From the IMG/VR virus record IMGVR_UViG_3300017971_002799, positions 1-64,000 of that record: a DNA stretch of 64,000 bases; one strand, 5' to 3'. The translations under genes and the position numbers were made by a program. The notes under the pieces were generated by a model. It was not told where the DNA came from. It made no database searches and saw only the letters and a list, made by a program, of their open reading frames with translations. Origin of the DNA: a virus (Duplodnaviria > Heunggongvirae > Uroviricota > Caudoviricetes). This document shows, in pieces, positions 7,510 to 38,317 of this stretch (its first letter is position 1; every line of letters starts with the position of its first letter).

Positions 7510-7839
7510 CTAGGCGGCCATAAGTTCGTCGTAACGATCTTTATGGTTGGCGATCAGCTGAGTCTTAGCACGATTCTTCGCGCTGTTGTCCATCGATTTT
7601 TCCTCAGCTTTCTTGAGGATGTCTTCTTTCTGCTTATCAGTGAAGACAGGACGCTCAACCGTTTTCCGGATCTTAGCCTGGATTTTCTTGAATTCTTCAT
7701 CGAATTCCGAAATCAGTGTTGATATGGCTTGATTCCGCTTTTTGTTTGTTTCCTGTCTCTGCATGGAGGACTTAACGTAGGTATCCCATACCCTTCTTTT
7801 TTCGTCCTCGGTTAGCGAATCATAATCTTTGAATTCCAT
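7510..7839 (-). CDS. hypothetical protein (paralog-like to 6573..6866)
   Basis: ORF track; basic, alpha-helical composition. Confidence 0.55.
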   Translation of the reverse strand: MEFKDYDSLTEDEKRRVWDTYVKSSMQRQETNKKRNQAISTLISEFDEEFKKIQAKIRKTVERPVFTDKQKEDILKKAEEKSMDNSAKNRAKTQLIANHKDRYDELMAA

Positions 7840-7872
7840 TCCTTTTCTCCTTTAAAATAGAGTTTAGACACG

Positions 7873-8079
7873 TCAACCGTTTTTAGAGTTAGCGCATTTA
7901 GGTTCACCTCCCTCAAAATGAAGTAGCTGACTTTCGGGTGCTCGCTCGAAATACAACTTCCAGTTTACCACCCAGTGTTGCATTTCCTCGTGTATGTACC
8001 CACACACGTTGCACACCCTCTCTTCTGTCTTTTTCTCTGCTATGTTCACCCCCTTAACACTTCGATTGAAAAAGAGCAT
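7873..8079 (-). CDS. hypothetical zinc-ribbon protein
   Basis: CNVCG...C motif; promoter-like motif immediately upstream. Confidence 0.5.
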   Translation of the reverse strand: MLFFNRSVKGVNIAEKKTEERVCNVCGYIHEEMQHWVVNWKLYFERAPESQLLHFEGGEPKCANSKNG

Positions 8080-8088
8080 CTCTTCCTC

Positions 8089-8106
8089 TAATTATATTAT
8101 ATAGCA
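8089..8106 (-). promoter_or_regulatory. Conserved promoter-like motif TGCTATATAATATAATTA (copy 1)
   Basis: The minus strand reads TGCTATATAATATAATTAG and contains a TATAAT -10 box. It lies directly upstream of the RBS/ATG of ORF 7873..8079. Near-identical copies occur at 9093..9107 and 53524..53538. Confidence 0.45.
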
Positions 8107-8204
8107 GTTTACTAAATCCCACACGCTTTTTTCCTTTAAGATTTAACTCCAAAGGATTGCAAGTCGAAAGTGAATTTCTGAAAAATGCATCTTTGTATTC
8201 TTCC

Positions 8205-9077
8205 CTAAGCATCATGATTCCCTCTTACAGAAAATCCATTCTTCCGTAAGTATTGAATAAAGGTGTTATACTTTTCGTCGTTAATAAAGCTCCCAGAAAG
8301 TACATGCTCGTATCGGGCCTTATCCCTAACAGCGAGCTTGGATGTGACATCGAAGGCGAATTCGGCGGAATGGACAAAGTCGGATTTTAATACAAACTCG
8401 GATTTTTCGGCGACTTTGGATTTCGTCACGGTTCGAACGTTTTCACAAACCTTACACTCCTCATACCAGGAATCAGGACTAGAAGGCAGGTCTAAGCAGG
8501 GACCCCACTGACAAATGTGGACTTTCACATCTTCATAGCAGTGGCAGTTGAAACAGTAGTAGTGAATTTTGTGAATAGAATAGGGGATTACGTTATTACA
8601 GTGACGACAGAGAATCGGTTGGAGGTTGATCTCTCTGTTGAGCCCGGCGTGGTCTGTGAGCAGTTGGTCTAAGACTTGCATGTTGGTGTAGGACATTTCT
8701 TCTCTCGGCGGATATTTAGTCTTAGATCTCTTCTTCTCCTCTACGTGAGCTTCAAGTGTCTCAAGTACTTTGAGGAACGTCTCCTCCGTGATAACTTTGA
8801 TATCGTATTCATTCCATTTCTCCATAGGCAATTCCTCTTCGGGTAGCTCTTCTAGAAGGTTTAGAAGCTCTCCCTCTGTTATACGAGGTATACCTAGAAC
8901 TATGGCTTTAGCTTCCTTTGATCCAGGCTTCTCACCAACAACGAGATAGTCAGTGTTTCGAGAGACAGAGGAACCAACGAAACCACCTGCTTTTCGTGCT
9001 GCTTCAGAGGCTTGGTTACGAGTGACAGCGAGCTTGCCGGTGAACACAAACACCTTGCCCTCAGCTAGAGTAGCCAT
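8205..9077 (-). CDS. BRCT-domain protein with C-terminal Cys/His-rich region
   Basis: N-terminal [10 protein letters not shown]...[40 protein letters not shown]...[14 protein letters not shown] matches the BRCT fold of NAD-ligase C-termini. The C-terminus has CRHC...CFNCHC...CKVC clusters. Confidence 0.55.
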
Positions 9078-25056: not shown

Positions 25057-25749
25057 ATGACAGTAAAAGCTGTTATACTATTATCTGGCGGCCTAGACAG
25101 TTCAGTAGTCGCCTACATAGCGAGGCATGACATAGGAGAGTCAGGGGATTTATATGCTCTGACTCTTTCTTATGGTCAAAGACACGAAAGAGAAATAGAA
25201 AGTGCTATGGACATCGCGAGAGCTGTCGGGGCTTGTCAGCATATTATACTCAAAGGCTTACCAATAGATGTCCTAGTTAAAACCGCTTTAACAGGGGATT
25301 TCGAAGTTCCAACAGATGGAGTCAGTGCCGAGATACCTTCTACTTGGGTTCCACAAAGAAACAGTATCTTCCTAGGACTTGCTTTCGCTCTTGCGGAGAC
25401 TGTTGACGCTCGCGCTGTTTACATAGGTGTTAATTCTGTAGACTACTCTGGCTACCCAGATTGTCGACCAGAATTCATATCGTCAGCAGAAAAGACTTTT
25501 AACCTAGCGAGTAAAAGGTTTGTAGAGAAGCGCAGAGCAATCGAGTTAAGAACTCCGATAATTAGTAAGTCTAAAAGAGATATTGTTCGTTGGGGTATGG
25601 AGTTGAGGGTTCCATTCGATTTAACTTGGTCTTGTTATCAAGGTAACGAAAAGGCCTGCGGGGTCTGCGATAGCTGTCGGATAAGAGTAGCAGCTTTTAG
25701 GAGTCAGGGATTAACAGATCCTATTGAGTATGAAGAGGTTGTAAAATGA
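25057..25749 (+). CDS. queC: 7-cyano-7-deazaguanine synthase QueC
   Basis: PP-loop LLSGGLDSS; YGQRHEREIE; C-terminal zinc motif CYQGNEKACGVCDSCRIR; size ~230 aa. Confidence 0.85.
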   Translation: MTVKAVILLSGGLDSSVVAYIARHDIGESGDLYALTLSYGQRHEREIESAMDIARAVGACQHIILKGLPIDVLVKTALTGDFEVPTDGVSAEIPSTWVPQRNSIFLGLAFALAETVDARAVYIGVNSVDYSGYPDCRPEFISSAEKTFNLASKRFVEKRRAIELRTPIISKSKRDIVRWGMELRVPFDLTWSCYQGNEKACGVCDSCRIRVAAFRSQGLTDPIEYEEVVK

Positions 25750-26083: not shown

Positions 26084-26677
26084 TTGTCCGTGTTGGACGA
26101 GCAATTTAAACAAGCCAGTAGCGATTTGGTAAGCAGCCTTAGAGAGATGTATAAAGATTGGGATGGTGTAAGTCAGTTCAATGATACAGAGAATCGACTA
26201 ATCCGATTGTTTGACGAATTCTGTTGGCCTCCCGATAAGATTGAGACTGCTTTGGATAAACACTTCAAAGCAACCTTTCCACATCAGTTTGATGAGATGC
26301 TGGTGTCAGGCCCTTTTAAAGTCTTCACTTTATGCCCACACCACTTAGTACACTGCGAACTCCAGACGACCATCGCTTATGTACCTAGTGACAATAAGGT
26401 ATTAGGCTTGTCGAAATTTATCAGAATAGCAGAAACGATGGCTCGCAGACCTATACTCCAAGAACAGTTCTGCAACGAACTTGCTTGTGAGTTTGAAAAG
26501 AGACTTCACCCCAAAGGCGTTGCTGTTTATGTCGTAGGTAAGCATGGATGCATGACTTCTCGAGGCGTTAGACAACACTCAAGAGTCACAACAAGTGTCT
26601 TAAAGGGGACATTTGAAACGCAAGCAGTAACGCGTGCAGAGTTCTTTGCCATAGCTAGAAACGGGAAGGTAGAATGA
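26084..26677 (+). CDS. folE: GTP cyclohydrolase I (FolE)
   Basis: CPHHLVHC (FolE CEHHLxPF zinc site); VLGLSKFIRIAETMARRPILQEQF (FolE GLSKxxRxVExxxRRLQVQE). Confidence 0.8.
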   Translation: MSVLDEQFKQASSDLVSSLREMYKDWDGVSQFNDTENRLIRLFDEFCWPPDKIETALDKHFKATFPHQFDEMLVSGPFKVFTLCPHHLVHCELQTTIAYVPSDNKVLGLSKFIRIAETMARRPILQEQFCNELACEFEKRLHPKGVAVYVVGKHGCMTSRGVRQHSRVTTSVLKGTFETQAVTRAEFFAIARNGKVE

Positions 26678-27630
26678 TCAGCGTTGATGAAGAACAGCTT
26701 GAGGTTGTTGAACACAAAGGCAGTACAATATGTGTTGCAGGTCCAGGAAGCGGTAAGACTCGAACATTGCTCGCCAAAGCCGAACGCCTCTACGAAAAAA
26801 ATAGAGATCTGATCTGTTTAACGTTTACAAGAGCAGCTGCTGAAGAATTAATAGACAGAATGCCAGGAATAACAGCTTCCACAATACACTCTTACTGTTG
26901 TAGAAATGTTGGTTGGAATGGTAGTTACGATAGACTTCTATTCGACTTTCAGAATCGGAAATACAAAGACAAATACGAATACGTTTGTATTGACGAAGTC
27001 CAAGACTTAACAATCGAACAAATGGATGTAGTACTCTCTATAGCTGGTGAGAAGATTTTTGCTATTGGAGACCCTTATCAATCAATTTATGGTTTTAACG
27101 GTGCTTTAGGTTTAGAAGCTATCAAAATGCTGAAGCAGTGGGGTTGTGAAGAATTTACATTACATAACAACTACCGAAGTGAACCTAAAATTGTTGATTT
27201 CCTAAACAAGATCTACGCAAGGAAGTTGATAAGTAAGGGTTTTAAAACCAATGGAAAGACAGCAATACTTTCTCGCACGAACAAGTTAGTCAAAGAGGTC
27301 TCTACACTCTTAAGAGGTTTGGGGATTGCTCATACTGTGAGATTTGGTAATGCCAGTGAGGGAGAGTCAAAAGAAACAAACTATGGCAGTGGCAACTTAA
27401 TTGTACAAACGTGTCATCAATCGAAAGGTACAGAGTTTGATTATATTCTCCTCTACAAGTGGGAACAACATCGCTTCCTTACAGACGAAGAAAAAAATCT
27501 TTTCTACGTAAGCGTTTCCAGAGCAAGTCATGGCTTTGCTCGTATATACAATAGACATCAGTTAATGGAAGCTTTAAAAACAGTAGGTCATGGCGAAAAA
27601 ACACAGTCAGGAAACTCGCAAGCGTCTTAG
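26674..27630 (+). CDS. minimal UvrD/Rep-like SF1 helicase
   Basis: Walker A GPGSGKT, motif II DEVQD, motif III GDPYQSIYGFNGA, motif V/VI-like CHQSKGTEFDYILL; lacks the 2B insertion. Confidence 0.6.
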   Translation: MISVDEEQLEVVEHKGSTICVAGPGSGKTRTLLAKAERLYEKNRDLICLTFTRAAAEELIDRMPGITASTIHSYCCRNVGWNGSYDRLLFDFQNRKYKDKYEYVCIDEVQDLTIEQMDVVLSIAGEKIFAIGDPYQSIYGFNGALGLEAIKMLKQWGCEEFTLHNNYRSEPKIVDFLNKIYARKLISKGFKTNGKTAILSRTNKLVKEVSTLLRGLGIAHTVRFGNASEGESKETNYGSGNLIVQTCHQSKGTEFDYILLYKWEQHRFLTDEEKNLFYVSVSRASHGFARIYNRHQLMEALKTVGHGEKTQSGNSQAS

Positions 27631-28009
27631 TGAAGCTGCTAAACGCCATTACGATAAGCACCCAGAGACGCGTATGCAAATAAGCCACACGCTTCGAGGC
27701 AAGCGTAAAAAACCAAATAAACAAGAAACCAGAGTTCTAAACTTCCTCAATAGAAAGTATCCAAATTGTTGGTGTTGGAATGGTGGTTGGCTAACTTTCG
27801 AAGGGAAGATACCCGATTTTATTCACGAGCCAAGTAAACTGAAAATAATTGAGTTCTTCGGTAACTACTGGCATAAACTAGAGGAAGAGGAAGAGAAAAT
27901 AAAATTCTACGCCAAGTTTGGTTACAAAGCTTTTATTATTTGGGAAACGGAGCTTGAAAACGCTTCCGGGATGGTAGAAAGACTTGATAAATTCATGCAG
28001 GAGGAGTAA
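27590..28009 (+). CDS. homing-endonuclease-like protein (NUMOD3-like N-terminus + Vsr/DUF559-type nuclease core)
   Basis: HSQETRKRLSEAAKRHY is NUMOD3-like; IPDFIHEPSKLKIIEFFGNYWH matches the Vsr-type D...E.FDG.YWH motif. Confidence 0.4.
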   Translation: MAKKHSQETRKRLSEAAKRHYDKHPETRMQISHTLRGKRKKPNKQETRVLNFLNRKYPNCWCWNGGWLTFEGKIPDFIHEPSKLKIIEFFGNYWHKLEEEEEKIKFYAKFGYKAFIIWETELENASGMVERLDKFMQEE

Positions 28010-28741
28010 ATGTTACTATCATTGGAAATACCAACGGGGATGTTAAAATTGATAACACCGTTAACGGACTTCGAATTCGCCTTAACACACCTTGTACTAA
28101 GCGATCAGGAGTATCAAAAACATTACGCGGAATCCGCAAACTTCAAAATTCTCGACAACTCTGTTAATGAAACCGGTACTCCCACCACGATTGCGGAACT
28201 GGAAGAAGCTGCGAGGATTATTCTACCAGATGTGATTTGTCCACCAGACTATTTTCTAGATGCTGACAAAACTCTGGACGCTCTAGAGGACTCGCAAGAT
28301 GTTTTCGACTTTGAAAAAATTCTACCAATTCTCCAAGGAGACTCCCACGATGTCGCTACTGATTGCGCTTGGGAAATACATAAAATGGGGTTCAACAAAC
28401 TAGCAATCCCGTATAGTATAACAAAAGATAGAAAAGCTGACTCTAGAGATAGTATGGCGGAAGCTCGTTATAACATTATCTATACTATATCTGGGCTGTT
28501 CGAGTGGATACATCTTTTGGGCGTGACTACACTAGACGAGCTCGGGGCTTATAGTGAGTTTCGCAACGTTTCCACTCTTGATACAGGAGTACCGATTACA
28601 GCTGCTTTTAAAGACTATAGCTTAGCAAGTCAAGAGTTACACCCCAAGAGTCAAAAGATGGTTTGGGATGGAGAGATTACTCCTGCGATTTGCAATCTAG
28701 CGCTCTACAACATAGCGTACCTAAGAACAGCTATGGTATAA
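28010..28741 (+). CDS. TGT-family DNA transglycosylase DpdA-like protein (paralog 1)
   Basis: FKILDNS aligns with the TGT DSGG loop; ILPILQGDSHDVATDCAWEIHKMGFNKLAIPYS aligns with TGT GIVQGGxYxDLRxxSxxxLxxxGFDGYAIGG; lies next to the preQ0 synthesis genes. Confidence 0.4.
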   Translation: MLLSLEIPTGMLKLITPLTDFEFALTHLVLSDQEYQKHYAESANFKILDNSVNETGTPTTIAELEEAARIILPDVICPPDYFLDADKTLDALEDSQDVFDFEKILPILQGDSHDVATDCAWEIHKMGFNKLAIPYSITKDRKADSRDSMAEARYNIIYTISGLFEWIHLLGVTTLDELGAYSEFRNVSTLDTGVPITAAFKDYSLASQELHPKSQKMVWDGEITPAICNLALYNIAYLRTAMV

Positions 28742-29009
28742 GAAGGTGCGGTGCCCTCGGAAGACCTAGGAGGTGTAGACCCCCGTATCACGCGATTACA
28801 TTCGCAGGGTGGAAGTCCTTTTTAAGATAACGGGTAAGGCTGCTCCTAGAGTCTGAATGTCTTGCTTGCTAGCGAAGTGAGGATATAAACTGTATGATCT
28901 AGAGACCTCGTGGGGAGATAGAATTCTCCATGCAGTTGGGTGTGCTTGGGTGAAAAGTGCCGAGCCCAATAGTCGGCCTACCGCATCTTAATGAAGAAGT
29001 GGTTGAGGA

Positions 29010-29588
29010 GTGGGAGAAAATAAAATGATTGAAGTGGAAAAAATTTATGACGACATAAGGACTGAAGGATTGTACTGTGGTACTCCTATGACCTTTGTCA
29101 AACTAGGTTTGGGTACTGAATATCCAAGCTGTAGACAGCTTCTAGAGAATGTTGTTCTCTTGGGAAGAAGAAGATGGGTTTGTCTAATCGGTGAGAATAC
29201 TACAAGAGCTGGTATAGGAAGATTCTTCGAAGGTTTAAAGTCTTTTGGTTTCTCTAGCGAGGTAGTTATTACTGGTAATAGAAAAGAGCCCGGTTGGAGA
29301 AACAAAACCACAAGCATTATAGTAGAACTCGGAGAGGAACTTCGATACGACCTTACAACTCTTAGAATGGGAGATGCTATTCGAATCTCTTTACATACTG
29401 TTGATGATGTAAAGAATATTCAATCTGTATTGGATAGATTCGAAGAAGATCCTTTCTGGAAGTTTCTCTTCATCGACCCTGTTCTAGGAAAGGGTGAAAA
29501 AAGGAATCTCGTCTTGAAACGTATGATCATGGAAGCTGCCGAAGCTGCTAACAAGTGTGAGAAAGCGAGGGTTTTCTGGAATGTTTGA
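29010..29588 (+). CDS. QueE-like paralog lacking the radical-SAM CxxxCxxC triad
   Basis: Aligns with the QueE of this window (IYDDIRTEGLYCGTPMTFVKLGLG vs [24 protein letters not shown]; RRRWVCLIGEN vs [11 protein letters not shown]; GFSSEVVITGN vs [10 protein letters not shown]), but the CNLKCKYC site is replaced by LGTEYPSC. Confidence 0.45.
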   Translation: MGENKMIEVEKIYDDIRTEGLYCGTPMTFVKLGLGTEYPSCRQLLENVVLLGRRRWVCLIGENTTRAGIGRFFEGLKSFGFSSEVVITGNRKEPGWRNKTTSIIVELGEELRYDLTTLRMGDAIRISLHTVDDVKNIQSVLDRFEEDPFWKFLFIDPVLGKGEKRNLVLKRMIMEAAEAANKCEKARVFWNV

Positions 29589-29737
29589 TATATCTTTACA
29601 CACCAAAATAAAGTACTGGATTCAAGTTAAATTAGGACAGAAGCTTTGCTCAGGTCACAAAGTTTATCCTAACGGAGTAAGTTGTCCTGGTTGTCGAGAT
29701 TGTAAGTAGATAAACAACACCAAGTAAAAGGAGTAGG

Positions 29738-30706
29738 ATGTTAGCACAAGCCGTAATAGCAACTCCGGCTGAAGAAACGCATGCACCAGGATTTTCTGTA
29801 ACACAAGCTTCCCCGTGTTCTTATGCTACCTATTTAAACTACCATAAACTGGATCCTAAAGAAAGAGACGAGAGCGCTCATCTCACTTTCGAGGACGGAC
29901 ACGAGCAGGAAGCATCAATTGTAAAACAACTGGCACGTGCAGGCTTTGCTATGCGTTTCACAGGCGAGGATCAGTTGGAAGTCAAAGTCGGACGATCCGA
30001 AGTTCCAGGACATCCTGATGGTCTTGTAACACCTAAAGCTAAAGAGCTAATGCTTGAAATCAAAGCGATGCACGACTACAGATTTCAAACTGTTAGAGAA
30101 AAAGGTCTCACATTCGAGCCTCTTATTTACAATCAAGTTCAGATGTACATGCCTGGTTTAGAACAAACATTTGGTATTAAGGTTGAAGGTACTCTCCTCT
30201 ATTGTAAGAACAAGAACACTTGCGATCCCTTTGACATGTTTGTCGAAAGAGACGATTCATATTCCAAACCCATTATCGAGGCTATGGACGAAATCATTTT
30301 AGGTAATTGGGAACCTAAACCAGAAGTTTGTCAAATATGCACGACGTGTAGACACTCTAAGTTCTGTTGGGGCGCTCCAGTCCTTGATTTTACTGGCGGA
30401 CGTGTAATAACAGATCAACAACTTGTAGAGAAATGGATGCAAGGAAAGTCTTATAAGACTATGGGTGAAGAGCTCTACGAACAAGCGAGAGAGCAGATGA
30501 AGAAGCTTCTTGGAACAGACGATGTCATCTACTTTGAAGCTACCTTTGGGGAAAATGTAATTGTTGTTGAAGCTAAGTTAACACCTACTACCTATAGAAA
30601 CTTTAGTTCTGGTAAATACGCAAAGATACACGGAGTCAAATATTTGGAAGACTGTTACAACATTACAGATAGCTTTCAATTCAGAACACAAGAGATAATA
30701 AAGTGA
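29738..30706 (+). CDS. Cas4/RecB-family PD-(D/E)xK nuclease with Fe-S cysteine cluster
   Basis: N-terminal SPCSY cysteine; HPDGLV...LEIKAM (D..E.K); C-terminal CQICTTC...C cluster. Confidence 0.5.
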   Translation: MLAQAVIATPAEETHAPGFSVTQASPCSYATYLNYHKLDPKERDESAHLTFEDGHEQEASIVKQLARAGFAMRFTGEDQLEVKVGRSEVPGHPDGLVTPKAKELMLEIKAMHDYRFQTVREKGLTFEPLIYNQVQMYMPGLEQTFGIKVEGTLLYCKNKNTCDPFDMFVERDDSYSKPIIEAMDEIILGNWEPKPEVCQICTTCRHSKFCWGAPVLDFTGGRVITDQQLVEKWMQGKSYKTMGEELYEQAREQMKKLLGTDDVIYFEATFGENVIVVEAKLTPTTYRNFSSGKYAKIHGVKYLEDCYNITDSFQFRTQEIIK

Positions 30707-31857: not shown

Positions 31858-32253
31858 ATGCTATATATTTGTAAGAGATTCAAATTCGATGCCGCACATC
31901 GACTACCGCATTATAACGGGCCCTGTAAAAATCTTCATGGACATACCTACTTCCTAGATGTGAAGGTAAGCGGTCCGAAACAAGTAGAAGGACCTTGCAA
32001 AGGTATGATAATGGACTTCTCCATCTTGAAGACTGTAATACAAGAGAACGTCATCAGTCTGTATGATCATAACGATCTTAATAACTTCTTTAGTAACCCT
32101 ACTGCCGAGTTAATGGTTGAACAAATCTGGTATGACATCGTGGGTCAACTCGAGTTCAAAGGGGTTGTTCTAGAGGAATTAAGACTATGGGAAACTCCTG
32201 ATAGCTATGCAGAGATGAAAAGAGATCTTCCAGGAGTTGTAGGACCTTTATAA
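31858..32253 (+). CDS. queD: 6-carboxy-5,6,7,8-tetrahydropterin synthase QueD
   Basis: FDAAHRLPHYNGPCKNLHGHTY carries the QueD/PTPS zinc motif Cx5HGH; size 131 aa. Confidence 0.8.
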   Translation: MLYICKRFKFDAAHRLPHYNGPCKNLHGHTYFLDVKVSGPKQVEGPCKGMIMDFSILKTVIQENVISLYDHNDLNNFFSNPTAELMVEQIWYDIVGQLEFKGVVLEELRLWETPDSYAEMKRDLPGVVGPL

Positions 32254-32576: not shown

Positions 32577-32872
32577 GAGGAAAAATGAAAAAGGGACAGT
32601 TAATCGCAAAGCTTTTCATATTCACTGCAGGTATGGTATGGATGTTACTCTTTTTGTATATCTGTATCGTTTGCTTTGACTTCTTCAGAGAAGTTATGTT
32701 TGCCTACGGTGAAATAGACTTGGATAACTGGTTTATGACTGTGCTAGAGACATGGTATTTGCTTACCTGTATCGCTAGCGGCATCTGGCTTGCTCGCAGA
32801 ATGTTTCTAGTCGTTGGAGAATGGCAAAGGGAGAAGGTAAATGGTAATGGAAACCAAAAATCCAATTCTTAA
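32501..32872 (+). CDS. small membrane protein (likely true start MKKGQL at 32586)
   Basis: Two TM helices; SD ttaggaggaaaaATG precedes the ATG at 32586. Confidence 0.45.
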   Translation: MEDFILCNLLWDNHNRNYILDKNMLGGKMKKGQLIAKLFIFTAGMVWMLLFLYICIVCFDFFREVMFAYGEIDLDNWFMTVLETWYLLTCIASGIWLARRMFLVVGEWQREKVNGNGNQKSNS

Positions 32873-33554
32873 AGTAAACGAAGTTTTTTACTCCATTCAG
32901 GGAGAAGGTCTCACTGCAGGCGAGCCTACAATCTTTGTCAGACTTCAAGGGTGTAACTTAAAATGCAAGTACTGCGATACCACTTACGCACAAAACGGCG
33001 CTAGGGGTCTTCTTATAGGTACAGACGAGATCGTTAACTTGGTAAAGTCCCGATCAGAAAATAGTGTAATCGGAAAACGCTGGGTTTGTATTACCGGCGG
33101 CGAACCTCTCAAACAAATGATAGCGTTAGGGAGTCTAGTTCCTAAATTAAAGAAAGAAGGCTTCCTTATTGAGATAGAAACAAACGGGACTTATCTAAAA
33201 CCCTCCTGGTTTAACACTATCGACTCCTGGGTAGCTGATATAAAGTGTCCCTCTTCTAACTACTCCCCAACTGAAGGCATGATAACACTTTGGTTAAACA
33301 GTAGAGAACAAGATCAAGTAAAATTCGTTGTGGATAGTCATGAAGATCTACGCTTCGTAAGAAGACTACTCACAGAAGGATTTAACAACCGAAAGTACTT
33401 CAAGCCCAAGATACTGGTTAGTCCAGCTGCTAACGAGGATGCAGAGTTTAATCGAGACTGGATGGAAGAGGTCGTCGAGTTCTGTAAAGAATTGAACATT
33501 CGATTTTCTTTACAGATACATAAACTCATTTGGAAAAATAGAATAGGAGTTTAA
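32841..33554 (+). CDS. queE: 7-carboxy-7-deazaguanine synthase QueE (radical SAM)
   Basis: [32 protein letters not shown] (CxxxCxxC); GGEP motif; size 237 aa. Confidence 0.85.
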
Positions 33555-37603: not shown

Positions 37604-38317
37604 ATGGATATAGCAACAATAGCACCAAAGTCTCTCCTAAGTTTATGCGAGTTAACAAAACTACAATTATGTTACGCTGAGTTGGCTCTCAAGGACAATG
37701 AATATAGAAAGTTCTACCAAAACGTTAAAGGTATCGTTGTCTTAGACCACTCGCCAAGGATACCTAGAAAATCTCTTTCGGAAGAACACTTCCTGGAAGC
37801 AATTGAATTAATCAATCCAAATGTAATAATCTTACCAGACGTAGATTTCTCGGCTGGTACTACGGTGTCAAAATCTCTAAAACTCCTTCAGAGTATCGAG
37901 CCAAAACGTCGGGATCGCTGTGTTGGAGTATTACAAGGAACGAACTTCAAGGAAATAAAAGAGTGTTACAAAACTTTCAAGAGGCATTGTGGGATCATAG
38001 GACTAGCTTCCTCCGCTGAGAAGGTAATGCCTAGAAAACAAATAGCTGATAAGCTTAAGATAAAGAAGCTTCTCCTTTTGTTAGAAGTATTTTCAAACCC
38101 TGTTGACGAGCTCATAACCGACGAAAGATTGTTAGGAATTTGTACCTCGTATCATATACGTTTAGCTGCAGAAGGGCGTACTCTAAAAAACTACACACCA
38201 ACACCTAAACTACTCGATTTTTACGTAGACTACGAAATGCATTACGCTCTAGCAGAGCATAACCTGCAGACATATAAAAAACATTTTAAGAAGGAGATAA
38301 ATCGTGAAACTAGATGA
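37604..38317 (+). CDS. TGT-family DpdA-like protein (paralog 2)
   Basis: Aligns with ORF 28010 (L..D.EY.K.Y...LD.S....EA...I.P.VI.PDV; CVGVLQGTNFKEIKECYKTFKRHCGIIGLASS vs ILPILQGDSHDVATDCAWEIHKMGFNKLAIPYS). Confidence 0.4.
   Translation: MDIATIAPKSLLSLCELTKLQLCYAELALKDNEYRKFYQNVKGIVVLDHSPRIPRKSLSEEHFLEAIELINPNVIILPDVDFSAGTTVSKSLKLLQSIEPKRRDRCVGVLQGTNFKEIKECYKTFKRHCGIIGLASSAEKVMPRKQIADKLKIKKLLLLLEVFSNPVDELITDERLLGICTSYHIRLAAEGRTLKNYTPTPKLLDFYVDYEMHYALAEHNLQTYKKHFKKEINRETR

Follow-up and report, generated by a model that had tools for sequence, protein, structure and literature searches.

A QueE-derived paralogue without Fe-S or SAM sites in the deazaguanine gene cluster of an uncultivated phage lineage

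Genes and features of the locus

The window analysed here is the whole stretch of 64,000 nucleotides, a piece of an uncultivated phage genome. Its comparison with 50,697 GenBank phage records yielded zero nucleotide matches, and the nearest QueE proteins from isolates share at most about 37% identity. The open reading frame at 29010..29588 (+) was confirmed. It contains an in-frame GTG at 29010; the true start is predicted to be the ATG at 29025 and not this GTG, because MIEV opens every homologue and the ATG is preceded, at a distance of 7 nt, by the Shine-Dalgarno sequence GGGAG. The gene (29025..29588, +) then encodes a protein of 187 aa, a QueE-derived paralogue without Fe-S or SAM sites, hereafter the paralogue. 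Exactly the same protein sequence was recovered on metagenomic contigs of about 87.8 kb from JGI, ENA and Logan.

The gene order around the paralogue is QueC, FolE, UvrD-like helicase, NUMOD3-type ORF, DpdA3, a gap of 283 nt, the paralogue, Cas4-like nuclease, QueD and QueE. QueC (25057..25749, +) was detected with TIGR00364 at 194 bits, above the curated cutoff, and Pfam QueC was matched in the gene calls of L001. FolE, a GTP cyclohydrolase I (26084..26677, +), was assigned by Pfam (1.5e-37), and the UvrD-like helicase gene, starting at 26674, lies between FolE and the NUMOD3-type ORF. The DpdA3-type DNA guanine transglycosylase homologue (28010..28741, +) was identified by tblastn comparison with CP220 and phiST proteins, together with a weak NCBIfam DpdA match (1.8e-5). 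On the other side of the paralogue are found the Cas4-like PD-(D/E)xK nuclease (29738..30706, +; Pfam Cas_Cas4, phrog_1990 and TIGR00372), QueD (31858..32253, +; Pfam PTPS, 4e-31) and the true QueE, parent of the paralogue (32841..33554, +). The latter matches Pfam Radical_SAM and Fer4_12, phrog_2076 (1e-51) and QueE entries of the PDB, and its CxxxCxxC motif is intact. The preliminary description of the locus had placed the paralogue inside a deazaguanine cluster, and the presence of QueC, FolE, DpdA3, QueD and QueE in the window bears this out. The phage is predicted to carry a 7-deazaguanine in place of guanine in its DNA.

The product of the ORF at 28010 matches phiST gp042 and CP220 gp056, presumably the DpdA3 genes of these phages. 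PMC10516641 established DpdA3 as a family from phiST and from phages of Campylobacter. A second, divergent DpdA3-like paralogue, called here DpdA3b, lies further downstream (37604..38314, +). It is related to the ORF at 28010 by BLASTP (E=5e-5) and to the DpdA3 group by hhalign (97.7%), and is conserved in four of the related loci (L010, L011, L012 and L018). The DTG motif of DpdA3 reads CTS in DpdA3b, which may thus act, like QTRT2 of eukaryotes, as a partner without catalysis of its own.

Several other features of the window and of the related loci were recorded. The NUMOD3-type ORF (27590-28009, +; 139 aa), recognised by a weak, sub-threshold Pfam NUMOD3 match (E=0.047), overlaps the end of the UvrD-like helicase gene and carries a C-terminal stretch that looks Vsr-like by eye. 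It is probably a mobile homing endonuclease, since it is found in the window phage only among the relatives. At 12677-12871 on the minus strand, a weak Rfam tRNA match of 195 nt (30.3 bits, just over the gathering score) was obtained with no ARAGORN call, and could correspond to an intron-containing or degenerate tRNA. Relatives contain two or three tandem QueC paralogues (L010:6381-9208; L012:4038-4721 and 7714-8424), and these multiple copies suggest extra ATP-dependent tailoring steps. In three relatives DNA polymerase A is fused to an N-terminal UDG-family domain (L010:16210-18759, L011:10466-12361 and L012:17641-20088). The true QueE of L018:8762-10609 (IMGVR_UViG_3300032046_004423) appears to be split by an intein, some 380 aa long and carrying a putative HNH endonuclease domain; as read by eye in the translation, the insert sits in the radical-SAM Cys motif, between THCSW and CDTAYAQ, beginning with CLVDG and ending with LCHN. 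Finally, the window phage lacks QueF, and nearly all of L006, L008, L010, L012, L016, L017, L096 and L097 carry queF, usually right after dpdA3. Judged from this gene content, the window phage may end at preQ0 while its relatives proceed to preQ1-type bases.

The non-coding gap upstream of the paralogue (28742..29024, +) measures 283 nt to the ATG and 268 nt to the GTG. It had been described as an unusually long, structured leader of about 270 nt. The gap itself is real, and among the 38 gaps nearby just one is longer, but others of 263, 216 and 184 nt are also present. The structured character did not hold: the folding energy has a z-score of -0.73, with 42 of 200 shuffled sequences folding equally well or better, Rfam returned no match to the gap even at E<=10, and comparison with the region upstream of the homologue in L004 revealed no convincing conservation. 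A tRNA search of the gap was also negative, and a structured RNA was rejected at this place. Scanning the gap for promoters and terminators yielded neither a sigma-70-like promoter nor a terminator. No similarity to the rest of the window or to the related loci was found by blastx or blastn, and the candidate of a decayed queF or other gene was dismissed, these searches against all related loci being empty. In L010, L011 and L012 the gene of the paralogue abuts or overlaps its upstream neighbour. The gap may be a rearrangement scar, because it sits where relatives carry queF right after dpdA3 and the window lacks queF; no leftover similarity in the gap backs this reading. A separate observation concerns L004:1-197, upstream of a close homologue, where two hairpins with loops resembling a tRNA T-arm occur, GTGGGTTTAAGTCCCAC and TACAGTTCGAATCTGTA, with no ARAGORN tRNA.

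Homology to QueE and loss of the catalytic sites

The preliminary description had recognised the ORF as a paralogue of QueE. BLASTP between the paralogue and the window QueE gives E=4e-9 with 28% identity over residues 3-107, and an HMM of the paralogue family matches the window QueE with E=2.5e-19. The careful alignment, which could have ended in no homology to QueE, extended instead over the entire protein: hhalign of the family against the QueEs of the lineage reaches a probability of 99.6% (E=1.4e-24), residues 3-176 being aligned with residues 4-223. As to the sequence blocks said to be shared by the two proteins, EGLxxGxPxxFV and GFxxExxxxG are found in both, while in the middle block the ORF reads RWVCxxGE where QueE reads RWVCxxGGE, so that the pattern noted earlier, RWVCxxGxE, was slightly off.

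The paralogue is about 50 residues shorter than QueE and presents the QueE-type radical-SAM half-barrel fold with an N-terminal beta-hairpin. AlphaFold2 attained a pLDDT of 95.9 with the alignment of 41 sequences, against 52.6 with 3 sequences only. Profile comparison of the family with PDB sequences gave only marginal matches (adenosine deaminase, E=0.03; QueE, E=0.2).

The fate of the catalytic sites was followed in a MAFFT alignment of the 41 family representatives with five QueEs of the lineage and E. coli QueE, whose numbering is used below; the roles of its residues were taken from PMC11142719 and PMC5347944. The loop bearing C31, C35 and C38, which hold the Fe-S cluster, and the Mg2+ ligand T40 is deleted in frame in all 41 representatives, and CxxxCxxC is present in 0/41 sequences. 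The Cys triad is thus absent, as had been stated. What had been put as its replacement by LGTEYPSC is more aptly seen as the in-frame loss of the entire loop that carries the cluster, and the lone Cys of this segment in the window protein has no family-wide conservation. The contacts to SAM follow the same trend: GGEP has shrunk to G-E/x, with G94 becoming Glu or variable, the D-x-K-C-P-S-S segment including S136 is deleted or variable, and Q189 is variable. The C-terminal SLQxHK (QxHK) is missing. Among the ligands of the substrate CPH4, Q13 is an invariant Arg in the family (R12, 41/41), E15 is retained in 30/41 (E14 in the paralogue), and R27, which forms a salt bridge to the carboxylate of CPH4, is variable. 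The Glu of ETxG (E81) is present in 29/41 and is Val81 in the window protein.

Could the cysteines be recovered by correcting a frameshift? Searching CxxxCxxC in the six frames of 28700-29700 returned no usable motif, the single regular-expression match crossing two stop codons. The paralogue is therefore dead as a QueE, as proposed earlier, in that the [4Fe-4S] and SAM sites are gone from the alignment. It is predicted to be unable to bind a radical-SAM [4Fe-4S] cluster or SAM, and hence to perform the QueE reaction, and on this prediction must serve some role other than QueE chemistry. By its sequence the family is derived from QueE and is not QueE by membership, because none of the four defining catalytic features tested was found intact.

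Distribution, selection and origin of the family

HMMER, run exhaustively over 1.84 billion representatives, recovered 41 clusters, 31 of them at E<=1e-10, all made of intact ORFs of 165-190 aa. No Pfam model matched any of the 41 members, the thresholds of PF04055/PF13353 (Radical_SAM) not being reached; PHROGs gave no match to the family, which stays below the threshold of the QueE group (PHROG 2076), and no NCBIfam model matches it. PADLOC, queried for any tie to defence or anti-defence, gave no match, and neither did tblastn of the paralogue against the 50,697 GenBank phage records. The related loci recovered with a subset of 10 members were short metagenome contigs only, and none came from GTDB genomes. 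Full-text searches of the literature on DpdA3, on QueE-like phage proteins and on radical-SAM pseudoenzymes turned up no account of the family.

The dN/dS of the paralogue is 0.07-0.09 with respect to its two closest homologues, dS being saturated in these comparisons. The paralogue, the true QueE and the DpdA3 homologue occur together in 9/9 independent long contigs of the lineage (the window, L006, L010, L011, L012, L016, L017, L096 and L097/L018). QueD, FolE and QueC are each present wherever the examined stretch of these contigs covers them, and QueF is present in most. The check proposed in the preliminary description, conservation in related phages, was thus answered positively by the 41 intact cluster representatives and the nine contigs. 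Outside the lineage, the paralogue was detected in none of about 75 QueE-bearing viral loci, and it is absent within +/-20 kb of DpdA3 in phiST, CP220 and MA9V-3; being absent from these characterised DpdA3 phages, it is no general component of DpdA3 clusters. Purifying selection maintains it, and each member of this uncultivated lineage of DpdA3-encoding phages that was sampled also has an intact QueE. This co-occurrence could reflect common ancestry, not common function, because the phages are syntenic overall.

The origin of the paralogue was approached through its relationship to the QueEs of its own phages. With the family HMM, the lineage's true QueEs reach 39-66 bits and other phage QueEs (80 IMG/VR loci) 33 bits or less, while no match at all is obtained to QueE of phiST, of CP220 or of Chryseobacterium phage MA9V-3. 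The near-invariant residues P89, W91, R114 and D117 of the family belong to the motifs ETNG..PxW and RxxDQ[IV]KF, which are common to the paralogue and the lineage QueEs and occur in 0-1 of 55 other phage QueEs. These lineage-specific motifs and the HMM scores indicate that the paralogue was born of a queE duplication inside its own phage lineage or at the base of the latter, and that its cofactor sites were then lost. Between the same pairs of phages, identity is 25-32% for the paralogue against 39-50% for QueE, so the former evolves somewhat faster.

Taken together, we are highly confident that the paralogue is a selected derivative of QueE without Fe-S and SAM. It has the properties that define a pseudoenzyme, being a homologue of an active enzyme minus the essential residues and under purifying selection across species. 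This label would apply to the QueE reaction, and leaves room for a new non-radical activity.

Proposed role and comparison with known systems

The best overall explanation, which we hold to be about evenly balanced between right and wrong, is that the QueE-derived pseudoenzyme is a non-radical accessory of 7-deazaguanine DNA modification. A duplicate of the lineage's own queE has kept the half-barrel core and the N-terminal substrate hairpin, while in-frame deletions have removed the Mg2+ site and the CxxxCxxC loop for [4Fe-4S], together with QxHK and the segments that contact SAM (GGE and D-x-K-C-P-S-S). The product is then predicted to be unable to make the 5'-deoxyadenosyl radical or to turn CPH4 into CDG. 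Its remnant QueE pocket, with an invariant Arg in place of Gln13, with Glu15 retained in most members and without Arg27, would accommodate an intermediate that is a pterin or a 7-deazapurine; the paralogue might also join QueE or DpdA3 as a subunit without catalysis of its own.

A role of this kind in the deazaguanine pathway, by ligand binding or as a partner subunit, we regard as possible, with a probability somewhat below even. The roles suggested in the preliminary description, a scaffold or regulator of the modification machinery or a substrate-binding decoy, are conjectural, the present data being compatible also with a ligand carrier or a new non-radical enzyme. Retained ligand binding is favoured because the N-terminal hairpin, which carries the substrate ligands of QueE, is the best conserved part of the family and because the change of Q13 to Arg is invariant. 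The second DpdA3-like paralogue and the multiple QueC copies fit a pathway of paralogous, possibly non-catalytic subunits. Several points weigh on the other side. Apart from R12, most of the conserved residues are found in the parent QueE as well and could have a structural role only; Arg27 is not conserved, and the ETxG Glu is Val81 in the window protein. Moreover, the most constant neighbour of the paralogue is a Cas4-like nuclease and no deazaguanine gene. A more ambitious version, rather unlikely in our estimation, would make the paralogue an obligatory new part of high-efficiency guanine replacement of the DpdA3 type, that is, a cofactor-free module that would capture CDG or preQ0 through the invariant Arg and then hand the product to the transglycosylase pair DpdA3/DpdA3b or carry out a non-radical tailoring step not known so far.

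It is unlikely, to a degree slightly greater still, that the paralogue is a neofunctionalised enzyme whose remnant barrel runs a new non-radical reaction on a pterin or on a 7-deazapurine base or nucleotide, for example a final tailoring. Such an enzyme would account for the invariant or near-invariant residues specific to the family and absent from QueE (R12, and G63-x-G65 after the former GGE strand), and for the charged residues retained at strand ends (E79, E81, D117 and R182). The lineage does expand other enzymes of the pathway, with 2-3 QueC paralogues and the second DpdA3, and DpdL, the QueD-like proposed CDG decarboxylase, provides a precedent (PMC10516641). However, no missing step is evident, FolE, QueD, QueE, QueC, QueF and DpdA3 all being present in the relatives and all but QueF in the window. 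Just one invariant polar residue is specific to the family, E14 and E81 vary within it (E81 being Val in the window protein), and the paralogue has no cofactor motif.

The constancy of the Cas4-like nuclease leads to another reading, quite improbable in our view, in which the paralogue is an accessory of this nuclease or of a replication-recombination module, apart from base synthesis; the recycled fold would serve as an adaptor or specificity factor, for instance telling modified from unmodified DNA. The nuclease (314-324 aa) lies 3' of the paralogue on the same strand in 13/13 loci showing both genes, at a distance of -70 to +2590 nt. The paralogue is always just 5' of it, whereas what precedes the paralogue differs between loci; in 8/13 loci the two genes overlap or stand no more than about 130 nt apart, and a UvrD-like helicase, an SSB and a Rad52-like protein are encoded nearby. 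Nevertheless, two loci have 1.5-2.6 kb between the two genes and others have small ORFs there, nothing in the median pI of 6.2 points to nucleic-acid binding, and the adjacency, seen within loci of the lineage, is explicable by synteny alone. A search for related loci with the nuclease alignment returned no matches.

Very improbable is a host-directed moonlighting function on a target such as the divisome, on the model of the dead E. coli QueE-R27A that blocks septation: the division block by E. coli QueE is indeed separable from catalysis, but it depends on the enterobacterial E45-W67 insertion and is abolished by the mutations C31A and C35A (PMC11142719), and both the E45-W67 and Cys regions are deleted in the paralogue. 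As for a decaying pseudogene, a frameshifted QueE or an assembly artefact, the missing motifs are its sole support and it is refuted by the 41 intact representatives, the dN/dS of 0.07-0.09 and the frame scan of 28700-29700, which places the Cys motif in no other frame, together with the pLDDT of 96 and the identical protein from JGI, ENA and Logan sources.

Returning to an accessory of DNA modification, phage 7-deazaguanine modification is an active field that already counts DpdA1-4, DpdL, DpdM and DpdN. An explanation of how DpdA3 phages come to replace all of their guanine is still lacking, and reconstitution of DpdA3 in E. coli did not succeed (PMC10516641); the paralogue, and likewise DpdA3b, could be missing accessory parts. 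The paralogue defines an undescribed, lineage-restricted and cofactor-less QueE-derived family outside current databases. It is a clean natural case of a radical-SAM enzyme that became a pseudoenzyme, and its origin, a duplication inside one phage lineage, can be dated. If the paralogue were the obligatory component envisaged above, it would be the first radical-SAM fold shown to function in nucleobase modification with neither SAM nor an Fe-S cluster.

With respect to QueE of known structure (PDB 5TGS/5TH5, 4NJG and 6NHL), the paralogue differs by the absence of CxxxCxxC, the Mg-binding Thr, GGEP, D-x-K-C-P-S-S and QxHK, by the Arg in place of Q13 and by an R27 that is not conserved. Non-catalytic paralogue subunits exist in other systems, such as QTRT2 in the eukaryotic tRNA-guanine transglycosylase and Dph2 in the Dph1-Dph2 radical-SAM pair. 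As in these cases, an inactive duplicate is kept beside the active enzyme, and the lineage also keeps DpdA3b with its CTS. Unlike the paralogue, Dph2 still binds an Fe-S cluster, and a heterodimer of the QTRT2 or Dph2 type may be envisaged for the paralogue by analogy only. HemW is a HemN-like protein of the radical-SAM family that acts as a heme chaperone (PMC13495026). It resembles the paralogue in its proposed role, a radical-SAM scaffold reused for ligand handling and not for radical catalysis, and differs in keeping its [4Fe-4S] site, of which the paralogue has none.

DpdL is a QueD-like protein of DpdA3 phages proposed to be a CDG decarboxylase (Cui et al. 2023, PMC10516641). Like the paralogue, it is a copy of a preQ0-pathway enzyme found in clusters of the DpdA3 type that has lost the signature residue of its parent (the Cys of CxxxHGH in QueD) and is thought to have gained a new role. 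The two differ in their fold, a T-fold in DpdL against a radical-SAM half-barrel in the paralogue, and in their context, DpdL being found in phages without QueC and credited with a specific reaction, whereas the paralogue stands beside the full pathway with no reaction assignable. By this analogy, DpdL is the nearest conceptual precedent for the paralogue within deazaguanine biology.
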